Assembly (NCBI GenBank): GCA_964645485.1 | Contig: CAZXZO010000003.1 | Span: forward strand, 102,580 to 140,423 | Reading direction: 5' to 3' | Length of the DNA stretch: 37,844 nt | Source of the DNA: an uncultured Candidatus Poseidoniales archaeon | GTDB lineage: Archaea; Thermoplasmatota; Poseidoniia; Poseidoniales; Thalassarchaeaceae | Shown: positions 16,743 to 27,604 of the stretch, piece by piece | How positions within the stretch are numbered: the first letter of the stretch is position 1 | How the letters are laid out: each line of letters starts with the position of its first letter | Position numbers and translations under genes: made by a program | Notes under the pieces: generated by a model | What the model was told of the DNA's origin: nothing | The model's database searches: none | Seen by the model: only the letters and a program-made list of their open reading frames with translations

Positions 16743-16934
16743 GAATACTACGCGGGATTCTCTCTTGATTACATTCTCGGCGCCAAATTGGAAAACCATG
16801 TTAGATAATCATCCTTGGAATAATGGACTGGGTTGTAATTGGATGGTTTCTATTACCATGAAAGTGGTTGTTAGGAAAGTGCATGGTTTTTAGTGAGTCC
16901 GCGAATCCGGTGTTCTGTAGTCGGAGTGGTGACA

Positions 16935-19166
16935 GTGGCAGGGGACGATAAAAAAACACTGAGTTTGAAAGTAGCGAAAGCAATTCCTAGCGATGTTGGC
17001 CATGGTAGAGCACGAGTTCCATTTGATAATGATTTGAATCTAAAACCCGGAGATATAATCGAAATCAATGGTGATGATACTACCGCCGCGATTGTATGGA
17101 GATGTCGGCCGGAAGATGCAAACTTAGGAGTTATCCGAGTTGATGGTATTATCCGCAAGAATGCTGGTTCACAACTCGGCTCAAATGTAACCATTCGAAA
17201 AGTTGAGGCTAAGCCATGCACAAGGCTCACACTCTCCCCTGTAATGGCGTCAAAACAGAAAGTTCGGTTTGGACCGGGTATTGAGGGCTTTGCCCGAAGA
17301 GGGCTCAATAAACGGCCAGTAGTCGCTGGTGATAGAATATTCATACCCGGTATGACATTATTCGCTGAGGCACTTCCCTTCGCTATTATGTCAACAACAC
17401 CAAAGGGGATTGTCCAAGTACTCCCTGAAACTGAAATTGTAATCAAAGATGAGGCCATCGACGAAGAAATATCTCAAGGTAGCACCTCTGTAACTTACGA
17501 AGACATTGGAGGCCTAGGAGACCAGTTGCAAAAAGTACGAGAGATGATTGAGTTACCTCTCAAACATCCAATTTTGTTCCGCACATTAGGGATAGACCCA
17601 CCAAAAGGAGTTCTATTGCATGGTCCACCGGGTACAGGTAAAACAATGATTGCAAAGGCAGTGGCTAACGAAACAAATGCCCATTTCACTTCAATTAATG
17701 GTCCTGAAATCATTAGCAAATATTACGGTGAATCAGAGAAGCAATTACGTGAATTATTTGAAGAAGCAGCATCTCAAGCACCAGCAATTATCTTTATCGA
17801 TGAATTAGACAGTATCGCGCCAAAGCGTGAAGATGTTACTGGCGAAGTTGAGCGTCGAGTTGTTGCTCAATTGTTGACATTGATGGATGGCATGCAAGGT
17901 AGAGACAACGTGGTTGTCATTGGGGCAACCAATAGACAAGACGCTATTGACCAAGCATTGAGGCGACCTGGAAGATTTGACAGGGAAATCGAAATCGGTG
18001 TACCTGATAAAGCCGGTCGCCAAGAAATAGTTGATATCCACGTAAGGAGTATGCCAATCGCAGATGACTTTGACATGGAATGGGTATTAATCAACACGCA
18101 TGGATTCGTTGGTGCCGACATTTCTGCACTTTCACGCGAAGCTGCAATGAAAGCCTTGCGAAGATACCTACCTGAAATCGACCTTGATGAAGAAGAGGTA
18201 CCTCCTGAAGTCTTAGAAAAGATGGAAGTTACAATGGGTGATTTCAAACTTGCAATGAAAGAGGTCGAGCCAAGTGCGTTGCGAGAAATTTACATCGAAG
18301 TACCAGAAGTTGGTTGGGACCAAGTCGGAGGTTTAGATGAGGTCAAAGACCGACTCAGAGAAAGTATTGACTGGCCACTTACCAAACCTGAACTCTTCAA
18401 ACACTTTGGAATCGAAGCACCTCGGGGTGTGTTATTGTTTGGAGCACCGGGGACTGGAAAGACATTGTTGGCTAGAGCAATTGCTTCTGAAGCACAGGCT
18501 AACTTCATCACTGTCAAAGGGCCTGAATTATTCTCAAAATGGGTCGGTGAATCTGAAAAGGCTGTTCGTGAAATATTCAAGAAGGCAGCACAAGCATCTC
18601 CGAGTATTATTTTCTTAGATGAATTTGAGAGTATTGGTGCACACCGGTCATCAAGCAACGATGGCGATGGTGGACAAACGGTTTCAAATCGAATGGTTGA
18701 CCAAATTTTAACCTGTATGGACGGAATAGAAGCACTTGACGGCGTGGTCATCGTTGCGGCTACCAATCGCCCAGAGATGATTGACCGAGCCCTGCTAAGG
18801 TCTGGGAGATTTGAAAGAGTATTGCACATACCACCACCTGACGAAAAGAGTTGTAGAGAAATTATCAAAATTCATACGACAAATATGCCAATGGGGAAAT
18901 TTGACCCAACCGATTTCGCGAAGAAATTGAACGGTTACACGGGTGCTGACATTGAGGCGGTCTGCCGAGAAGCGGCTCTTATTACAATGCGAGCAGGCAA
19001 AAAGACCGTTACCAAGAAGCACTTTGAATCAGCAATTGGAAGAGTCAGACCTACGGTGACTCCAGATATGCTTGAGTATTACGCTAAGTTAGAAGTCAGT
19101 CTCACTAGTGGAATGGAGAGTGTGAAGAGAGGTGGAGACACACTTTCCGGTATTGAATCGGTTTGA
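16935..19166 (+). CDS. cdc48: Cdc48/VAT family AAA+ ATPase
   Basis: N-domain plus D1 ([23 protein letters not shown]) and D2 ([21 protein letters not shown]). The GTG start at 16935 follows GGAGTGGTGA. Confidence 0.95.
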
Positions 19167-19271
19167 TGACCAAGAGATTTCTCAACTGAATTGCTGGTGT
19201 GAATCGGTAAATTGCTCCCATACGACTAGTCTTGATGAGAGGATTCAAGGGGTAAGGCCACCGACGCCAAA

Positions 19272-19517
19272 ATGATGACAGCAACCTTCGGGCAGGAACT
19301 GATTGGCTTGGTTGTTGTTGATTCACGGGGTGACATCCTTGGAACTGTGGCCGACTTGATGTTAGACCTGAACAGTGGAGCTGTTGGAACACTTGTAATT
19401 GAGTTGCAACCATCCCTAGATGCTACAAAATTGCCATGGCCTTCCGAAGCAGGTTTGATGTTGCTTCCAAGTGAAGAAATTGATAGAGTTGGACCTCAAA
19501 TCGTGTTAAAGCGGTGA
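19272..19517 (+). CDS. Stand-alone PRC-barrel protein (CdpB-like candidate)
   Basis: 81 aa: ELIGLVVVDSRGDILGTVADLMLDLNSGAVGTLVI...LP...I..VG..IVL. Confidence 0.85.
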   Translation: MMTATFGQELIGLVVVDSRGDILGTVADLMLDLNSGAVGTLVIELQPSLDATKLPWPSEAGLMLLPSEEIDRVGPQIVLKR

Positions 19518-19602
19518 AGCCAAAGAGATTCACCTGCGCACAACCGTATTAAGGCAGGCTCAGTCGTCAATCTGATAGACCTATGGTCTAGAGGGCGTTA
19601 GA

Positions 19603-21234
19603 GTGGCAATCACGGCGAATCAATTATTCGCACGGATGAATACTCGTCAGTTCAGGAGAGGAGCAACTCTCTTCGCTTTTTACACCGTCCTAGTTCTTCT
19701 TCTCGTAACTCTTCTGGGGAGTTTTATCAATCCTACACCATCCCAATTATCTGCTTATGATGACGATTGGGATGACATCTCAGCATTCAGGTATGACCTA
19801 AACGCAATGGGAGTAGAGACCCATAGTTTAGTCAGTAGCCCACTATTGCTCAATGAGATTGAAAATCCAGAAGAAACCGTATTCGTAATTGCTGGGGTTG
19901 AGAAAGATACCATCAGTTTACCTAGATTTACTGGTGATTCAAGTGTTGTCCAATTCAAAGAGAGCGATGGTTACACAACCAGTGAAGTTGAGGCTATCAC
20001 TTCGTTCGTAGCCAGAGGTGGAACGATCATCGTAATGGATGACTTCGGCTACAGTTCTGGGGTTGCATCTGCTTTCGGAATAGAATACAGCGGCCACAAA
20101 TTATACGATGCTGGAGCATGGACTTTGGACTACAACTACATCTGGATTAATTCAACAGATGGATACAAGTACACCTCAAATGTATCTCAGGCATGGGTCC
20201 ACCCATGTTTTGCTGACAGTGATGGAGATGGCTATGTCGACTTGATTGACCCTGACCCAGGACACCCAGGTGTACCCGGTATCATGACAATCACAGCAGA
20301 GGATGCTGGTCTGTGTGCCCACCACTTGACCGGAGATGGCAGCGCCCCGTGGGACTTCGATCCTGGATATGATTTACTTCTCAACTCGCCCTCGGCCTTC
20401 GACCCAGACCATGCAGATGATTCGGAAAAGAATCGTTATGGATTGGGTTATTCTAGTACGGATTCATACCTTGACATCAACGATGATGGTGACTTGACAG
20501 TTGGTCCTGCTGGAAGCGGATTTGAAGGTGATATGCAAGGGCCGTTCACAACTTATGTGAAGTACTGTCTATCACGGAATTGTGTTGATTCAACATCAGG
20601 GAAAGCACACTTCATATCTGACGGAAGTTTACTAATCAATACGGTTTATGATTATGAAAACAAATATGGCAATCAAAAAACAGAGATTGATTCAAACGAT
20701 AATCGAAAGTGGGCATTAGACGCAATTGCTGAAGCACTTCTAATCAATGAGAATGGAACGCTCTCTGCTAGTTCTGACGCTCAGGTGATATTCGATGAAA
20801 GCCGCCACGGTCAAACATCATTTATGGGTGACACCTACAATCTGATCTACTACGTCCTAGTCTATTTCACAAGCGATTGGATGGCTATGTTACTTCTCTT
20901 CCTAACCCTTTTCATTGCCTTTGAAGCAGTTATTATCCGCAAAACTGACCCTGAACCTTGGAGACATGTATTCAGCATCATCTACTATGGATTTGGTGAT
21001 TCACGACGCTATGGTTACTACAGTCGCGCAAACAAAGTCAAACAAGTTCTACTCTCAAGAGTTCGCAACCTAAACACCCTGACAAGAGATGAGTTTGATG
21101 CATTACCGGCCCGTGAACTTCAAAAAATGATTAACGACCCTGTATTGGTTAAGTTCGTCTTTGAAGACCGGAATTACTCACTAGAACAACTCGTTGCAGT
21201 TGTAAAGCGGGTAAAATTATGGGGGCGCAAGTAA
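19603..21234 (+). CDS. DUF4350-like membrane protein (N-terminal TM, extracellular domain, TM, cytoplasmic tail)
   Basis: Motifs DDDWDDISAFR, FVARGGTIIVMDDFG, FISDGSLLIN and VIFDESRH. Adjacent to DUF58. Confidence 0.7.
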   Translation: MAITANQLFARMNTRQFRRGATLFAFYTVLVLLLVTLLGSFINPTPSQLSAYDDDWDDISAFRYDLNAMGVETHSLVSSPLLLNEIENPEETVFVIAGVEKDTISLPRFTGDSSVVQFKESDGYTTSEVEAITSFVARGGTIIVMDDFGYSSGVASAFGIEYSGHKLYDAGAWTLDYNYIWINSTDGYKYTSNVSQAWVHPCFADSDGDGYVDLIDPDPGHPGVPGIMTITAEDAGLCAHHLTGDGSAPWDFDPGYDLLLNSPSAFDPDHADDSEKNRYGLGYSSTDSYLDINDDGDLTVGPAGSGFEGDMQGPFTTYVKYCLSRNCVDSTSGKAHFISDGSLLINTVYDYENKYGNQKTEIDSNDNRKWALDAIAEALLINENGTLSASSDAQVIFDESRHGQTSFMGDTYNLIYYVLVYFTSDWMAMLLLFLTLFIAFEAVIIRKTDPEPWRHVFSIIYYGFGDSRRYGYYSRANKVKQVLLSRVRNLNTLTRDEFDALPARELQKMINDPVLVKFVFEDRNYSLEQLVAVVKRVKLWGRK

Positions 21235-21236
21235 GC

Positions 21237-21243
21237 GAGGTGA
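21237..21243 (+). promoter_or_regulatory. Shine-Dalgarno GAGGTGA for the DUF58 gene
   Basis: 6 nt upstream of ATG 21250. The same heptamer occurs at 22502-22508 (+) and 27254-27260 (-). Confidence 0.8.
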
Positions 21244-21249
21244 TATCTG

Positions 21250-22503
21250 ATGTGGACTAGAAAGGCAGCCCTGATGATGACGTCGGGAATCGCGCTAGTT
21301 CTTATTGGAATGATGATGTCAAATTTCCAATTAATGGTCATTGGAATTGCGTTCATCTCCTTCTTGGCAATTAATGGATGGGTTGCAGGTCACGCTGAAT
21401 TACACATTGTTCGTACACTTTCTGCTGACAATTTGTACAAAGGAGATGACCTCTATGTTGAATTAGCAATCACCAACAAATCTCGCCGGCGAACTCAACA
21501 ATTGGAAATATTCGACAATGTACCTCATGAGATGAAAATGAAAAGCGGCCTCAATTACATGATGGTAAATTTAGGCGCAGGTCAGACAACTAGAATCAGA
21601 TATGTTCTGCGCTGCCCATTGCGCGGACACTTCTCTCTTGGAGCTGTCTCAATTAGACACCGCAACACCTTCAATCTATATTCAAACGAGATGTTCATTG
21701 ACCATCGCTCAGACATAATTGTATTCCCTCAAGTTCGTGATGTTGAGGAAGCAATGGTTCGAAGTAGAACACCTAAGATGTACACAGGAGCAACTACTCT
21801 GAGAACACCCGGACCAGGTACTGAGTTCTTCTCGCTACGAGAATATGTACCCGGAGACCCATTCAAGAATATCAATTGGAAAGCGTTCGCCCGCACTGGC
21901 GAACTGATGGTCAATGAAAAATGTCGAGATGCTGTGACCGATGTTTTCCTGCTTCTTGATAGCAGAGATGTTTCAAGAATTGGAACGGTGTTGAAAAACC
22001 CGTTAGAGATGGGAACTGTTGCTGCAGCATCTCTCTCAGCTTATTTCCTACAGCGTAGAGATTCAATCGCTTTAGCAGTTTACGATGATAGACTGTCATA
22101 CCTACCTGCTGATGGTGGAGATAAACAACACTTCAAGATTCTAAGTAGCCTCGCTGGAGTTGCTCCTAAGGGCAATATGCCATTACAAGCGGTTACTAAT
22201 GCATTAGCACCAAGATTCAGTCGTGGAAGTCCGGTTTTCATTATCTCTAGTTTAGAGGGAGATGGAACTGTACCACATGCTGTGCGTGACCTTGCAGGAC
22301 GCGGACACGAAGTAGTGGTTCTTAGCCCAAGTAGTATTGACTATGAGAGATTGGTAACAAGAATACCAAGGATGTCATACGAAGTAATGAAACTTGAGCG
22401 TCAGAATAGACTGACTGCATTAGCAGGGTTTGGCGCACGCGTAATCGATTGGATGCCTGATGTAGAATTATCACAGGCTCTATTACAAGTCAAGATGTTG
22501 TGA
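21250..22503 (+). CDS. DUF58 family protein (normally associated with MoxR AAA ATPases)
   Basis: Motif EFFSLREYVPGDPFKNINWKAFARTGELMVNE. N-terminal TM pair, an Ig-like region and a vWA-like C-terminus. Confidence 0.9.
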   Translation: MWTRKAALMMTSGIALVLIGMMMSNFQLMVIGIAFISFLAINGWVAGHAELHIVRTLSADNLYKGDDLYVELAITNKSRRRTQQLEIFDNVPHEMKMKSGLNYMMVNLGAGQTTRIRYVLRCPLRGHFSLGAVSIRHRNTFNLYSNEMFIDHRSDIIVFPQVRDVEEAMVRSRTPKMYTGATTLRTPGPGTEFFSLREYVPGDPFKNINWKAFARTGELMVNEKCRDAVTDVFLLLDSRDVSRIGTVLKNPLEMGTVAAASLSAYFLQRRDSIALAVYDDRLSYLPADGGDKQHFKILSSLAGVAPKGNMPLQAVTNALAPRFSRGSPVFIISSLEGDGTVPHAVRDLAGRGHEVVVLSPSSIDYERLVTRIPRMSYEVMKLERQNRLTALAGFGARVIDWMPDVELSQALLQVKML

Positions 22504-22512
22504 GGTGAATAA

Positions 22513-23748
22513 ATGGCAGATGATGTAGAACTACAAAGTGAGGGAAGTAGAACCCTTCACCTTAAGGAACTGCGCGTCCAATGGCAAGTTGTTGCTTTAC
22601 AGACAATTGCAACACTTGCTCTGATTTGGCTGTTCTTACAACTTGGATCCAATTTTGGCTCCTGTGACCCTTCACATGTGGATGGTGATGGTAACACAAT
22701 GTGGTGCCCTGCGTTGGACCATACTCTCTCACTGGACTTGTTTGAGGCTATTCTAGGAAGTGAATCGGGCGACTCATCGTATGATTTGCCTCTTGCAGAT
22801 TTCTTTACCGGACAAGGTAATGAGGGACCTGGTCGATATTACGTCCCTATCCTTATCTGTGGACTACTAACTGCTGGCTGGGTATTGCTCAACCTTCAAG
22901 CGCCACAACTGCGCAGAAAAGTGGTTCTTGGGGTTTTGATGGGCCTGATTCTATTCCTTGCTGGCCGGCTTCTCATTGGCTGGTTCTTTGGAATGATTAC
23001 AAGTTGGGATTTGTACTGGCCAATTGATTCCCCTGGCTCGGGGAGAAACCATGCCGAGACTCTCGTATATCCGTTAATTCTCTATACACAAGTGTTCATT
23101 GTTGGACTTTACTTGGTGCCAGTTTGGACAGGAATGATGGGGATCTGGGGGCTTTCTAGAAGGATGATAGGATGGTCTCTTGGAACGATTTTGATTTACC
23201 TTGGAATCCATGCCTTGCTTTCGTTTGAGGCGGTGACGGTTTACTTTGATCTTGGCTTGAATCCGATAAGTCCACAGATAAGTGATAAAATGGTTCTTGG
23301 AGGTTTGGTTTCCGAAACGATATATCCGTTATTGATGATGGCAATGTTGATGATAATTTTCTCCGAATCTGGATTTGCAGTAATACGCCAGTTGGAGTAT
23401 GCATTCAGGCTTCCTGAATCTTGCAAGAAAGACCCAGAGTATGTCACTCAATTTGATAATATGTTGAACGGCCATCTTGTCCACACAGTTGGAATCTTTA
23501 GTTTAGTGATTTTCTGTGCAATGTTAGCCCTGAAATTCGATGACTTAATCCTTGATTTAGTTGCGATATTCGGGTCCTCACAATGGAGTGGACAAGTACA
23601 AGAATCTCTTGAGTTGCAATTGACGTACGGTAAAGTAATATCAGCCATGTTGATGTTAATTTTCGTTGCCGGAATGAAATATATTTTGCCTTGGAATCGC
23701 ATTATTTCATTCGTTGAATCCAAACTACCAGATCTATCATCTGATTGA
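22513..23748 (+). CDS. Polytopic membrane protein of unknown function
   Basis: About 8-9 hydrophobic segments and a GAGGTGA RBS. Third gene of a tight operon. Confidence 0.8.
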   Translation: MADDVELQSEGSRTLHLKELRVQWQVVALQTIATLALIWLFLQLGSNFGSCDPSHVDGDGNTMWCPALDHTLSLDLFEAILGSESGDSSYDLPLADFFTGQGNEGPGRYYVPILICGLLTAGWVLLNLQAPQLRRKVVLGVLMGLILFLAGRLLIGWFFGMITSWDLYWPIDSPGSGRNHAETLVYPLILYTQVFIVGLYLVPVWTGMMGIWGLSRRMIGWSLGTILIYLGIHALLSFEAVTVYFDLGLNPISPQISDKMVLGGLVSETIYPLLMMAMLMIIFSESGFAVIRQLEYAFRLPESCKKDPEYVTQFDNMLNGHLVHTVGIFSLVIFCAMLALKFDDLILDLVAIFGSSQWSGQVQESLELQLTYGKVISAMLMLIFVAGMKYILPWNRIISFVESKLPDLSSD

Positions 23749-23756
23749 ATATTCAG

Positions 23757-24026
23757 CTAATTTGTTGCTGAAAAATGAATTATATGGGTTAGTATTCTAG
23801 CGATTGAGAATCCTAGAAAAGGAAGTCCACAAATGATTAGTGGGACCTGAATTAACTCAGGAATATCAAAATCCATAGTAAGGGCCGGGGCAATCATCAA
23901 CACCGAGGCACCAACGCAAGCAATAGATACGAATTTCTCCAACCCTGTTGGATATGCTTGTTGACCTTCAAGTTCTACCCCGGGCATTGGTTGTGCGCCT
24001 TCGCTTACGTCCTGTGAATCACTCAC
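23757..24026 (-). CDS. Small two-TM membrane protein of unknown function
   Basis: Two hydrophobic segments (FVSIACVGASVLMIAPAL; LIICGLPFLGFSIARIL). Begins 10 nt after the stop of the 1071-aa gene. Start is either 24026 GTG or 23987 ATG. Confidence 0.6.
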   Translation of the reverse strand: MSDSQDVSEGAQPMPGVELEGQQAYPTGLEKFVSIACVGASVLMIAPALTMDFDIPELIQVPLIICGLPFLGFSIARILTHIIHFSATN

Positions 24027-24036
24027 AATAAACAAC

Positions 24037-27000
24037 TCACAATTCAAGGTCGGAAAGTTCATCTTCGAGGGAGGCTAATTCAGAACGCTGTTCAGGGTTT
24101 GCTGGTGGCTCGACACCGTTAATCGTATCATCTCTTGAGGATGAGGCAGCGTCCATTTCGGCTAATTGGATATCAATATCTGCCAAGTCACTAATTTCTT
24201 CAACCGTCCCAAGTACCTCTGAATCAGGTAATCCAATTGTCATCCTACTTGTTAGGTCAATTCCGTCACTATCACTTGGGGCTTCTATTGGCTGCCATGT
24301 TTGACTTGAATCAGTTGGTTGAACATCATTTGGAGCAGCAATTGGAGATGTTTCCATTTGTTGAGAATCTGAATTTGGATTCATATGTGCAACGGCTGAA
24401 TCATTGATTTCTGGTCGCTCAACGGCAGTAAGTGAATGCGATTCGAAAGGTAACATTCCACTATTTTGGAAGGTCCATAAATCACCTACCGGAATTTCGC
24501 CTGTAAGTCCACTGACATCCAACCGATACTTCAGTTGCTCTAACACCTCAACCGTGCCTTCCAATCCAACTGCTTCACCGGTGGTCCTCTGGTCTGACTC
24601 AATGTAAATCTCATCAAGTGCATGCTGAATCAATCTGCGCACTTCTTTTGAAACTGCAGGCAGTGCTTCTGGCATATGAGATATTTTTTCTAAATGTTCA
24701 ATTTGTTCACTAGGTAAGCCAAGTTCAGACATTTGCCGCAATACTTCTCTAAGATGCATTAGCATCGTGACTGACTGCTCGTAATCATTGAGTAGATTTT
24801 CTAAGTCGAGAACAACATTAGAAACTGTTTCTGCTAGTTTGTGTTCCAATCTATTTTGAACTGACCAACGAGTCAACCCACGAACTGTGTCAGCAGTTTC
24901 TGGTGCTTGCTGGCTGAGCAAATCCATCACTTCTGTAGAGAGTAAATATCGTGGTGTTTGTGCTACTTCATCAACCGTGTGTTGAATGACTTGTAGGCCC
25001 CGCTCAACTGCTCGGTCAAGTAAAACGACACTGAACCCACGTGAGCGGGCAGATGTCATCCGTGACAGAACTGGCTCGAGCATCGCTAATCCTGATTCAT
25101 CACCGAGTAATGCCCTGGCCAATGGCTCTTCTGAGAGACGGGCGCGTATACGGTCAGCTTCTGCAAGGTCTGCTAGAGCAAGTTCGTGCGCCCCTTCGAG
25201 ATCTTCTGATTGTTCAATCAGCATCCTTAACTCGGCTTCTGATGCACCTCTACGAGTGTCAAGGTCACCTAGTTCACGCATAAGTTGGCGGCGTTCTTCC
25301 ATCAATTCCCGAAGTTCTGATTGCAATAGAGTGTGCTTTCTATCCATTTCTGCACAACGAAGTCTCTCTTCCTCAACCATCCCTCGGCTGGAGTGTAAAT
25401 CTCCCTCTATCGAGGTTAACTCATCCCTACGTTGTTCGACTTGACGTTCAAGTTCATTGAGTTCTGCAGTTGCACTGCGATGACGCTCTCTTTGGGCCCC
25501 AACTTGTTCATGCAACACTCTCTGCACTCTCTCATCATCATCTATGATTCGCCTGACTTCAGTCAAACGGGATTCCGAGGTTTCGAGTTCTGACTTTACT
25601 CTAACTTCTTCAGCAAGTAAGCCCTCTAAAGCGTTGAGTAATTCTTTGCGAGATTCCATTTCTCCAAGAGCAGAAGCCATCTCTTCTGCTCGCTTTTTTA
25701 CTTGGCTTTCTAATTCAGCCACGCGGCGGGCGAGGCGCTCGGCCCGAGCAGATTGTTCTTCTCCAATCTGTTCTTTTTCTCTAATTTTAACTGTGAAATC
25801 ATCAAGTTGAGATGAAAGTGACATGCGCTCATCACGACCTTCTTGGAGGAGTTCTTGTAATGCTGAAAGTTCGGTTTTAAGTTCATCACGTTGAACTCTA
25901 GTGTTGTCAACTTTTTCCTGCATCTTGCCACTTTCTTTTTCCAATCTTGCGACATTGTTCGCATGTGATTGGATTCGGGCTTGTAACTCTGCAACAACTG
26001 GCCCCATCAGACTCTTTCGAGTAGTTCCTGGTAAACCGTCTGCAGCCTCTCCATCGTCAACAAGTTGCCAATTTTGTCGGCCGGTTTGCATTGATTCAAA
26101 ACCAAGTTCAAATCCATACAAGACATCCAAACGGCCTTTCAGTAGGCTTTTTCTATCCTCACTCCTAGTGCGACAGGAAGCAAGGCTATCACAAAAATTG
26201 TGGAGAGACCAATCCTCAACCGTACTTGCACGAAGAAGCAATCTCATTGCCCTATCAAGTCGAACGAGGTGAAGGCGGTTAGAGGATGATGTTGCATTTG
26301 TTACGGCTTTTTCAGTGGAGGTTATTCCTTGGCTACGAATGCCTACTGGAATACCATCAATCAAGGTGATTGCTACTGTAACCCCGTCGGTTGGAACGGA
26401 TTCTAGGTAGCCAGTGGTAGAATCTTCTTTTGCCATTTTTAATGCCGAAAGAGTCTGGTCAATTCCGCTCTTGGAATCTTTTATGGAAATCCCTTCAGGC
26501 AGTGGTTCTCCAGCATCATCACCAGCCAAGCCGGATGATTCGGTTTTGAGCATCGCTGCTGCGTTTGCCAGCAGTGCGGTGTGGTCTGCCTCGGAATCGG
26601 TCCATACGGCAATTGCAGCATCACCTGCTGGGGCAACTAATAGAGAACCATCAACAAGAGAAAGTGAAGAGGCAAGAGGTCGCTCTTGACCCATTCCTTC
26701 AGCGAATGATTCCATGGCATTGAGGTGGTTTTGGACCATAACAGAAAATTCCGCATTATCTGCAGGAAGGTCTCCTTCTGTGTGAACAAGCATTCCCTCC
26801 TCTAGTGCACATGCACCTCTAGTAACCTCACTTTTTGCCAGTGTTTCAATTAGTAAAGCAAGATCCTTTGTGGGGATATGCCCTTCTATTCTTGGCATTG
26901 GGAGTAGGGTTCCTAATGTTGCAGGGTCAACAAACGCCTCAAGCAAGCCTCTTGCAACCTGCTCAAACTCAGACTGAGTCCAAATCACGGCTCTTGATCT

Positions 27001-27252
27001 CAAATCAACAGAGTTTGAAAGAGTGCGTAATTCAGTTCGAGCATCTTCTGCGGCGAGGAATTTCTTGTTTGAACTTGAATCAGCTAACCATCCAGCAGAT
27101 TCGCCAGCACAAATTAGGCGATGACCCACAGGATTCTTTGCTCTGGGTTTGAAGTAAGATATCGCTCCGAAATCAAATGGGAAAGTTTTCATCTCCACAT
27201 TCAAGTCTATTTCTCCATCAACTGGCTCACCCAATGGTAGTTCAAACATCAT
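24037..27252 (-). CDS. 1071-aa multidomain protein: two LPxG-initiated alpha/beta domains (DUF2226/DUF4388-like) flanking a Roadblock/LC7 domain, an ~290-aa coiled coil, a helical domain and an acidic tail
   Basis: Roadblock pattern at aa ~130-237 (helix, strands, helix, SLVDGSLLVAPAGDAAIAVW, helix). E/R/L/Q heptads at aa ~420-708. No Walker A motif. The RBS overlaps the stop of the upstream gene. The CDS call is secure; the domain names are tentative. Confidence 0.7.
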   Translation of the reverse strand: MMFELPLGEPVDGEIDLNVEMKTFPFDFGAISYFKPRAKNPVGHRLICAGESAGWLADSSSNKKFLAAEDARTELRTLSNSVDLRSRAVIWTQSEFEQVARGLLEAFVDPATLGTLLPMPRIEGHIPTKDLALLIETLAKSEVTRGACALEEGMLVHTEGDLPADNAEFSVMVQNHLNAMESFAEGMGQERPLASSLSLVDGSLLVAPAGDAAIAVWTDSEADHTALLANAAAMLKTESSGLAGDDAGEPLPEGISIKDSKSGIDQTLSALKMAKEDSTTGYLESVPTDGVTVAITLIDGIPVGIRSQGITSTEKAVTNATSSSNRLHLVRLDRAMRLLLRASTVEDWSLHNFCDSLASCRTRSEDRKSLLKGRLDVLYGFELGFESMQTGRQNWQLVDDGEAADGLPGTTRKSLMGPVVAELQARIQSHANNVARLEKESGKMQEKVDNTRVQRDELKTELSALQELLQEGRDERMSLSSQLDDFTVKIREKEQIGEEQSARAERLARRVAELESQVKKRAEEMASALGEMESRKELLNALEGLLAEEVRVKSELETSESRLTEVRRIIDDDERVQRVLHEQVGAQRERHRSATAELNELERQVEQRRDELTSIEGDLHSSRGMVEEERLRCAEMDRKHTLLQSELRELMEERRQLMRELGDLDTRRGASEAELRMLIEQSEDLEGAHELALADLAEADRIRARLSEEPLARALLGDESGLAMLEPVLSRMTSARSRGFSVVLLDRAVERGLQVIQHTVDEVAQTPRYLLSTEVMDLLSQQAPETADTVRGLTRWSVQNRLEHKLAETVSNVVLDLENLLNDYEQSVTMLMHLREVLRQMSELGLPSEQIEHLEKISHMPEALPAVSKEVRRLIQHALDEIYIESDQRTTGEAVGLEGTVEVLEQLKYRLDVSGLTGEIPVGDLWTFQNSGMLPFESHSLTAVERPEINDSAVAHMNPNSDSQQMETSPIAAPNDVQPTDSSQTWQPIEAPSDSDGIDLTSRMTIGLPDSEVLGTVEEISDLADIDIQLAEMDAASSSRDDTINGVEPPANPEQRSELASLEDELSDLEL

Positions 27253-27253
27253 A

Positions 27254-27604
27254 TCACCTCAATAAATCCTCAATTACACTCGTTCTCGCTCGCACTTCAT
27301 GCCTTAGTCTTCCAATATTGGCTGTGCCTTGACTAGAGACAAAGAGAGAAAATCCACCCAAGAGTGGGGCTATGATTATATTACCAGATTCTGATTCCAC
27401 CCAAAACTGTTGCAAATCACCTAGGCTTGTTTGAGAGGCGGCTCTGCCTACCTCTCTGAGAGAATCTGAAAGACCGTTGGAAATTTCTACACCTTTCAAT
27501 TCAGGAGTGATGAAGGTGGCTATTTCTTTCATATCCACATCAACGACTGCTGCTGCTTGGAAGCCATCAATGCGGCCAAATGTAGCCAGTAATCTCTGTA
27601 GCAT
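27254..27604 (-). CDS. Roadblock/LC7 (MglB-like) protein
   Basis: MLQRLLATFGRIDGFQAAAVVD...LGDLQQFWVESESGNIII...LFV....ANIGRLRHEVR is a typical MglB pattern. GGAGAGG RBS before ATG 27604; alternative start at 27625. Confidence 0.88.
   Translation of the reverse strand: MLQRLLATFGRIDGFQAAAVVDVDMKEIATFITPELKGVEISNGLSDSLREVGRAASQTSLGDLQQFWVESESGNIIIAPLLGGFSLFVSSQGTANIGRLRHEVRARTSVIEDLLR

Follow-up and report, generated by a model that had tools for sequence, protein, structure and literature searches.

A conserved operon of Poseidoniales archaea encodes a small Roadblock protein and a giant protein with a predicted Roadblock domain and a coiled-coil rod

In a stretch of 37,844 nucleotides (nt) from an uncultured Candidatus Poseidoniales archaeon of the Thalassarchaeaceae (GenBank assembly GCA_964645485.1, contig CAZXZO010000003.1, positions 102,580 to 140,423; the whole stretch is called the window below), three closely spaced minus-strand genes encode a small Roadblock protein of 116 amino acids (aa), a protein of 1071 aa and a protein of 89 aa with two putative transmembrane segments (two-TM protein). 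This operon is real and conserved across the Poseidoniales and holds one of the largest conserved genes of unknown function of Marine Group II. Its Roadblock and apparently PATAN-like parts are known from polarity systems that a GTPase drives, but no partner GTPase could be detected. Marine Group II archaea, which are uncultured, count among the most abundant archaea of the surface ocean; to our knowledge, almost nothing is known about their cell organisation.

The account that we favour, at a little short of an even chance, is a structural scaffold specific to the Poseidoniales that works without a GTPase. The head of the large protein would consist of a Roadblock domain between two PATAN-like domains, the rod of 282 residues would serve as a fixed-length spacer, and the far end would be formed by a conserved domain of 240 residues and an acidic tail ending in a conserved, putative docking peptide. 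The co-translated small Roadblock protein would pair with the internal Roadblock domain, or stack on its dimer, and thereby create a protein-binding platform, and the two ends would hold two different partners at a set distance near the membrane. New in this work are the incomplete distribution of the operon, the retention of the two-TM gene, the negative test for a link to the archaellum, the co-distribution with Tad-like systems and the evidence from shape for the domains that flank the internal Roadblock domain.

Operon structure and conservation

The layout of the operon (Table 1) agrees with an earlier reading made from the sequence alone (the sequence-only reading), which had described the stop of the 116-aa gene inside the GAGGTGA of the 1071-aa gene, the order of domains in the large protein with a long coiled coil and an acidic tail with an amphipathic end, and a two-TM gene 10 nt further on: all of these are found in the sequence or in the models. 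The small gene ends with the TGA at 27256-27254 and an ATG of the large gene follows one base on, at 27252; since homologues start with MFELP, translation more likely begins at a second ATG, at 27249. The two-TM gene has a GTG start at 24026, and its hydrophobic segments span aa 44-62 and 70-92 in a frame of 101 aa.

Gene order and close spacing of the trio are kept in distant relatives whose heads are only 32-35% identical, and the conservation of the small and the large gene as a pair, on which the sequence-only reading had made its proposal depend, extends across the order; the junction between the two is a 10-nt gap in one relative (locus L001) and a 1-nt overlap in another (locus L004). 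The literature searched contains no description of the operon or of the large protein, in line with the sequence-only reading, which had called it a candidate new system. A Pfam search (E ≤ 0.1) found no match for any of the three proteins and the domain assignments were therefore tested by structure and by family profiles.

The head of the large protein

With aa 1-400 as the query, 57 proteins of 989-1082 aa were retrieved, with identities down to 32% and no Pfam annotation on any of them. The AlphaFold2 (AF2) model of this region, made with 20 homologues, has a predicted local distance difference test score (pLDDT) of 81.7. In the model, aa 127-237 fold as a canonical Roadblock domain, where the sequence-only reading had expected one (aa ~130-237): the elements assigned by DSSP (helix 128-139, strands 144-151 and 154-160, helix 166-186, strands 195-199, 202-209 and 212-218, helix 224-236) follow the order alpha-beta-beta-alpha-beta-beta-beta(-alpha) of the Roadblock fold, which was used to test membership of PF03259. 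When this segment was compared with 48,161 chains by VIA-align, matches included p14 (2zl1_B, Z 13.5), an Asgard Roadblock protein (7yh1_D, Z 13.3) and MglB (6hjm_A, Z 12.2), with root-mean-square deviations (rmsd) of 2.4-3.1 over 111-116 residues; Foldseek matched it to Roadblock proteins with E ~2e-6. The sequence signal of the domain is weak: the PDB profile match to 7yh1 has an E of 0.017, a six-frame search of the organism's own genome with PF03259 recovered the domain with E 0.08, and PF03259 matches four of the 20 homologous heads (best E 5.4e-4) and not the large protein itself.

The Roadblock domain is flanked by two domains, A and A', for which the sequence-only reading had suggested a likeness to DUF2226 and PATAN (DUF4388). 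By shape the models lend this likeness partial support, and we leave membership of these families unclaimed. The strands and helices of domain A span aa 28-102 of the AF2 model. Domain A' occupies aa 255-340 within the model of the head and reaches a pLDDT of 80.3 when modelled alone (aa 246-350). Neither A nor A' has a solved relative; for A', the best Z among PDB structures is 4.8 and no PATAN-like structure is found among the matches. In the ESM Atlas, its closest matches by shape are unannotated Thermoplasmatota proteins with template modelling scores (TM-scores) of 0.82-0.85, followed by a Thermoplasmatota coiled-coil protein of 789 aa (0.76), a DUF835 protein (0.74) and DUF8054 (0.72); the TM-score to DUF2226 is 0.68 by query and 0.54 by target, with DUF2226 annotated on 18% of the cluster members. 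Predicted myxobacterial PatA_N proteins are matched with TM-scores of 0.60-0.63 by query over 89-94 residues. Language-model features place both A and A' into the same clusters, which include DUF2226 and PatA_N (0.83-0.90, with 0.83 for PatA_N; to be read as a lead only).

A and A' are not significantly similar to each other as sequence repeats (hhalign E 0.28), and a sequence search for wider relatives of A' returned only orthologues. In the own genome, the sole match to a further A'-like domain (E 0.27) lies within GyrB and was put down to chance.

The rod, the C-terminal domain and the tail

The head is connected by a long helix and a G/P-rich linker, together 67-68 aa long in the 57 homologues, to a rod that is exactly 282 aa long in 57 of 57 distinct full-length homologues at a median identity of 37%. 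In the large protein, aa 419-709 are free of proline and the heptad periodicity reaches z-values of up to 4.2 in comparison to shuffled sequences, with one register at aa 405-516, another at aa 531-698 and a shift near aa 517-544. If the rod is one continuous coiled coil, it is ~42 nm long. Heptad strength dips family-wide near aa 464 and 632 (aa 450-470 and 620-640; about 25340-25900 in the window); these weak spots and the register shift may be hinges. A palindromic heptad profile was tested as a sign of an antiparallel or hairpin rod and is no evidence for one: the best correlation is 0.63, centred at aa 543.5, and is equalled by 37% of block-permuted controls.

The helical C-terminal domain is exactly 240 aa long in all 57 homologues, with a median identity of 59%, compared to ~35% in the head, and is therefore the most constrained part of the protein. 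It has no match among Pfam and PDB profiles; the best result of these searches, FliS with E 0.053, was taken as chance. When its profile was searched against 1.84 billion representatives, 42 proteins matched: some are ~1020-1090 aa long and have the domain at the same position, the others are shorter and match parts of the domain. No relative outside this family was thus found among the representatives. The acidic tail varies in length among the homologues (112 to 143 aa), and its last ~14 residues are conserved in the family as an amphipathic peptide (aLxxLEsxLSdL[DE][LF]) at the very C-terminus.

A long heptad rod would also suit a cytoskeletal, coiled-coil-rich protein that polymerises under the membrane and acts in shape or division, in a role like that of crescentin, FilP/Scy, DivIVA or CdvA, and the conserved C-terminal peptide could mediate head-to-tail contacts of such a polymer. 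The fixed rod length, the globular ends and the conserved end domain are more in keeping with a spacer or adaptor than with a filament that assembles itself, and we regard the cytoskeletal role as unlikely, if with some chance of being right. The protein does not fit an SMC/Rad50-like ATPase, in which a Walker A/B head flanks an antiparallel coiled coil: there is no Pfam ATPase family and no GxxxxGK[ST] motif in the translation, the head is PATAN-like plus Roadblock and the palindromic heptad profile is not significant.

The small Roadblock protein and its predicted pairing

The 23 homologues of the small protein all come from Poseidoniales, Thalassarchaeaceae or unclassified euryarchaeal bins. 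Two of them (P0020 and P0021) have a precomputed PF03259 annotation and four are named Roadblock/LC7/MglB at the source; a profile of 18 homologues matches Thorarchaeota Robl_LC7 (7f8m, E 0.003) and MglC (7ct3, E 0.0039) in the PDB. In f2, the second family of the order and probably Poseidoniaceae/Marine Group IIa (MGIIa), the position of the small gene is taken by a gene of 113 aa that is 23-26% identical, and these MGIIa orthologues score 20.9 and 23.2 bits on PF03259, with the cut-off at 23. The PF03259 match therefore holds at the level of the family, while the small protein of the window (P0001) alone has no Pfam match. Judged by these profiles, the small protein belongs to the Roadblock family, as had been assumed, and is fast-evolving. 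Its profile comparison with the internal Roadblock domain (E 0.011, probability 4%) is too weak to indicate that the two are recent paralogues.

The two most likely pair with each other, as the sequence-only reading had proposed: when the small protein was modelled together with aa 122-242, the dimer score was 0.36 (runs 0.35, 0.36 and 0.59), compared to 0.00 for the best of three controls, which lends weak support to a heterodimer. At least 65% of the contacts agree between runs and the partner pLDDT is at least 67. Of 80 solved complexes, 58 reach this mark, as do two of 110 mismatched pairs; however, scores of 0.60 or under are found for only seven of the 80 solved complexes and for both mismatched pairs that pass. 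As Roadblock dimers are well represented among solved structures, the result may reflect only the likeness to these.

A second, weak Roadblock-like open reading frame (ORF) of 124 aa is found elsewhere in the own genome (C4:39334-39705; L006:1420-1794, minus strand; PF03259 E 0.015). Immediately upstream of it lies a highly charged ORF of 351 aa that resembles a coiled coil (L006:1819-2874), so that the genome has another pairing of Roadblock and coiled coil; with the single sequence as query, the 124-aa ORF was found in genera g1, g2, g3 and g8 only.

Searches for a GTPase partner

The profiles of Ras, Roc, Arf, Gtr1_RagA and SRPRB found no small GTPase in the window, as noted before from the sequence, and in a six-frame search of the own genome (1.94 Mb; completeness 82%) nothing matched them at E ≤ 0.1. 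The search with the Ras profile was extended to a sample of the order with 61 genomes, of which the other 60 are at least 90% complete: there was no match in the 26 Thalassarchaeaceae genomes, and the rest of the sample gave 13 marginal matches (15.7-25.3 bits) within frames of 369-678 aa from two f2 genera. These are long proteins, probably large GTPases and not MglA-like. Matches of 24-25 bits lie within frames of 374-678 aa at loci L016-L018 (genomes G091, G026 and G074).

The sequence-only reading had envisaged a GAP-like head with its GTPase acting in trans. More broadly, the operon could encode an MglB-like GTPase-activating protein (GAP), or a platform for a guanine nucleotide exchange factor, that sits on a polar scaffold and regulates an NTPase encoded elsewhere: the internal domain resembles MglB as closely as it does other Roadblock proteins, the profile of the small protein matches MglC, genes for Roadblock and PATAN proteins are known neighbours of MglA in prokaryotes (PMC4316618) and room remains for a very divergent GTPase or another class of NTPase. 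The searches above speak against a small GTPase as partner, and orphan MglB homologues are common in prokaryotes (328 in one survey, none characterised as of 2014; PMC4316618). We thus consider GAP or exchange-factor activity quite unlikely, and a scaffold that works without a GTPase is the reading we pursue below.

Distribution of the operon and retention of the two-TM gene

The distribution of the scaffold was determined with the profile of the C-terminal domain in 151 genomes of the class. It is present in 63 of 65 f2 genomes and in 12 of 40 genomes of the organism's own family (f1), in genera with genomes of 1.6-2.2 Mb; with the same profile it was not found in six f1 genera with genomes of 1.3-1.6 Mb, in the sister family f3 (0/43) or in family f4 (0/2). 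The profile of the small Roadblock protein also had no match in the scaffold-less genera. The operon is thus not universal in Poseidoniales and was not found in the Thalassarchaeaceae genera with reduced genomes. Since both Roadblock genes are found or missing together in the genomes searched, they behave as one unit. Loss of the scaffold in lineages with small genomes would fit a cytoskeletal role, whereas about half of the Thalassarchaeaceae genera do without it, which would be unexpected for a core factor of shape or division.

The two-TM gene has a different distribution. Wherever the large gene is present in the relatives examined, the two-TM gene follows 0-26 nt downstream on the same strand and encodes, at this position, proteins of 76-84 aa. 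Two scaffold-less genomes, G066 (a single contig of 1.6 Mb) and G062 (97% complete), lack both Roadblock genes at the locus and have retained a two-TM gene with the same N-terminal motif between ttuA and the gene of a 411-aa membrane protein, and genera g4, g5 and g25 have homologues of it in the corresponding position. This retention implies a further role of the two-TM gene that is independent of the Roadblock genes.

These data bear on the possibility that the three genes are not one system, with an independent two-TM protein and a small Roadblock protein and large protein that merely share a transcript. The two-TM gene is kept between ttuA and the 411-aa gene in g4, g5, g6 and g25 without the Roadblock genes, and its product is poorly conserved (14-15% identity to the MGIIa counterparts), as this possibility would predict; it does not account for the constant place of the two-TM gene behind the large gene, nor for the joint presence or absence of the two Roadblock genes. 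We give it a small chance only.

In scaffold-less genera, the motif PGRA..GKRTSPW.[DE]R.VL of the two-TM protein is kept and its gene stays convergent with the 411-aa membrane gene (two-TM genes at L021:7389-7670, plus strand; L022:2321-2569, minus strand; L023:2290-2586, minus strand; L026:3820-4128, plus strand). There are sequence hints that the two-TM gene may be functionally tied to this membrane gene rather than to the scaffold.

Archaellum and Tad-like pilus systems

A link of the scaffold to the archaellum was rejected: three genera, the own one among them, have the scaffold without archaellin, while g9 has archaellin without the scaffold; archaellin was not found in the own genome or in three other searched genomes of its genus. 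PilB-like ATPases fall into four size classes. Class II (~572-595 aa) follows archaellin in the genera sampled by both searches, whereas classes I (~415-440 aa) and III (~510-530 aa) are found, within the Thalassarchaeaceae, in exactly the genera that have the scaffold. Between the order's two families, class I ATPases share 72-74% identity, and the class is present in 37 of 37 f2 genomes. The two PilB/TadA-like ATPases of the own genome, of classes I and III, are encoded in two Tad-like clusters with two T2SSF platform genes each (C19:18586-24223, equal to L031:7584-13223, and C2:127754-131959, equal to L032:7755-11960); the neighbouring ORFs are unannotated.

In bacteria, PilB1 and PilC are bound by regulators of the PatA type, and for PilB1 the PATAN domain of PixE is sufficient (bioRxiv 10.1101/2021.06.11.447907). 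Because bacterial PATAN domains bind PilB/PilC, and because the operon shares its genera with the Tad-like systems within the order, we can speculate that the head docks on a type-IV-pilus-like machine, a guess that by analogy has a modest prospect at best and is probably wrong. A polarity or positioning system made from MglA/MglB/PATAN-type parts without the GTPase switch, in which the head would dock on the Tad-like pilus or on another envelope complex and the C-terminal domain would tie in a second cellular landmark, is more doubtful still.

Assessment of the scaffold reading

Several results weigh against the scaffold as we propose it, or against its extension to a pilus. No PATAN/DUF2226 profile match was found in the large protein or in the 20 homologous heads (PF14332, E ≤ 10; the HMMER filters drop most matches above about 0.1), and the own genome, in which no GTPase was found, is just 82% complete. 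The two-TM gene survives without the scaffold in g4, g5, g6 and g25, where both Roadblock genes are missing, and a dedicated membrane anchor, the function that the sequence-only reading had in mind for its product, is therefore not established. The class I ATPase is also present in nine of 12 f3 genomes, a family without the scaffold, and scaffold and pilus clusters are far apart in the genomes. Finally, the co-distribution with the Tad-like systems probably reflects a single loss in one genome-reduced clade: the scaffold-less genera look like one divergent group, as their 411-aa protein is 37-44% identical to that of the own genome, compared to 51-95% in genera with the scaffold. The co-distribution is therefore without statistical weight. 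The joint absence of the scaffold and the Tad-like pilus ATPases from genome-reduced Thalassarchaeaceae nevertheless offers a natural comparison for studying the role of the operon.

Neighbouring genes

A block of plus-strand genes (16893-23748) converges on the operon and has the same order in distant relatives (L001, L004). The presence of CDC48 and, in relatives, of a PRC-barrel gene in this conserved neighbourhood would fit a cytoskeletal role of the large protein. However, genera that lack the scaffold have this neighbourhood too, together with the 411-aa membrane protein, and synteny is therefore uninformative on any linkage. For the same reason a tie of the scaffold to the convergent cluster of DUF4350, DUF58 and the 411-aa membrane protein was rejected: the latter is present in 46 of 46 Thalassarchaeaceae genomes, scaffold-less ones included.

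Table 1. Features of the operon and of the convergent gene block (window positions; residues refer to the large protein)
Feature	Position	Strand	Description
Small Roadblock/LC7-family protein (P0001)	27254..27604	-	116 aa; translation
GAGGTGA, Shine-Dalgarno-like	27254..27260	-	read from sequence; holds the stop of the small gene
Large gene (P0002)	24037..27252	-	1071 aa
Domain A, aa 1-118	26899..27252	-	alpha/beta, AF2 pLDDT ~85-90; possibly PATAN/DUF2226-like
Internal Roadblock/LC7 domain, aa 127-237	26542..26874	-	AF2 model and structure matches
Domain A', aa 250-345	26218..26505	-	beta-alpha-beta-beta-beta-alpha-beta-alpha; PATAN/DUF2226-like by shape
Long helix, aa 365-393, and G/P-rich linker, aa 394-418	25999..26205	-	DSSP on model; composition
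Coiled-coil rod, aa 419-700	25153..25998	-	heptad register, no proline
Conserved helical C-terminal domain, aa 701-940	24433..25152	-	family-specific
Acidic variable tail, aa 941-1071	24040..24432	-	131 aa; 30 D+E vs 4 K+R
Two-TM protein gene	23757..24026	-	GTG start 10 nt past the stop of the large gene; 89 aa
411-aa multi-pass membrane protein	22513-23748	+	conserved block
DUF58	21250-22503	+	conserved block
DUF4350-like	19603-21234	+	conserved block
81-aa ORF	19272-19517	+	relatives have a PRC-barrel gene here
CDC48	16893-19166	+	conserved block

Comparison with known systems

One of the closest known systems is the MglA polarity module of Myxococcus xanthus and Thermus thermophilus. Its components MglB and MglC share the Roadblock/LC7 fold with the proteins described here (Z 12.2 to 6hjm for the internal domain, a profile match to 7ct3 for the small protein), two Roadblock paralogues are encoded together in both cases and a genomic association of Roadblock with PATAN-like domains is known in prokaryotes (PMC4316618). 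In contrast to this module, neither the genome nor the order yielded a GTPase of the MglA family, so that a putative GAP activity would have no candidate substrate, and one of the Roadblock domains is embedded in a protein of 1071 aa with a rod and a new end domain.

Stand-alone archaeal Roadblock proteins, in particular those of Asgard archaea (7yh1, 9jue, 9jq8 and 7f8m), are among the best structural matches of the internal domain (Z 11.9-13.3, rmsd 2.4-2.7 over 108-111 residues). They are, however, single-domain proteins of ~120 aa, while the domain described here is flanked by two further domains, fused to a coiled coil and accompanied by a separate small paralogue.

With PATAN (PatA_N, PF14332/DUF4388) and archaeal DUF2226 (PF09987), domain A' has an overlapping predicted fold (TM-scores of 0.60-0.63 and 0.68, respectively). 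It differs from both in that there is no profile match and in that it is nearer in shape to unannotated Thermoplasmatota proteins, and the large protein has no response-regulator receiver domain.

The top structural match of the internal domain, p14 (2zl1_B), belongs to Ragulator/LAMTOR, where p14-MP1 sets a precedent for heterodimeric Roadblock paralogues that act as a membrane-tethered platform. Ragulator scaffolds Rag GTPases, whereas the Gtr1_RagA profile was negative here and there is no sequence relationship past the fold.

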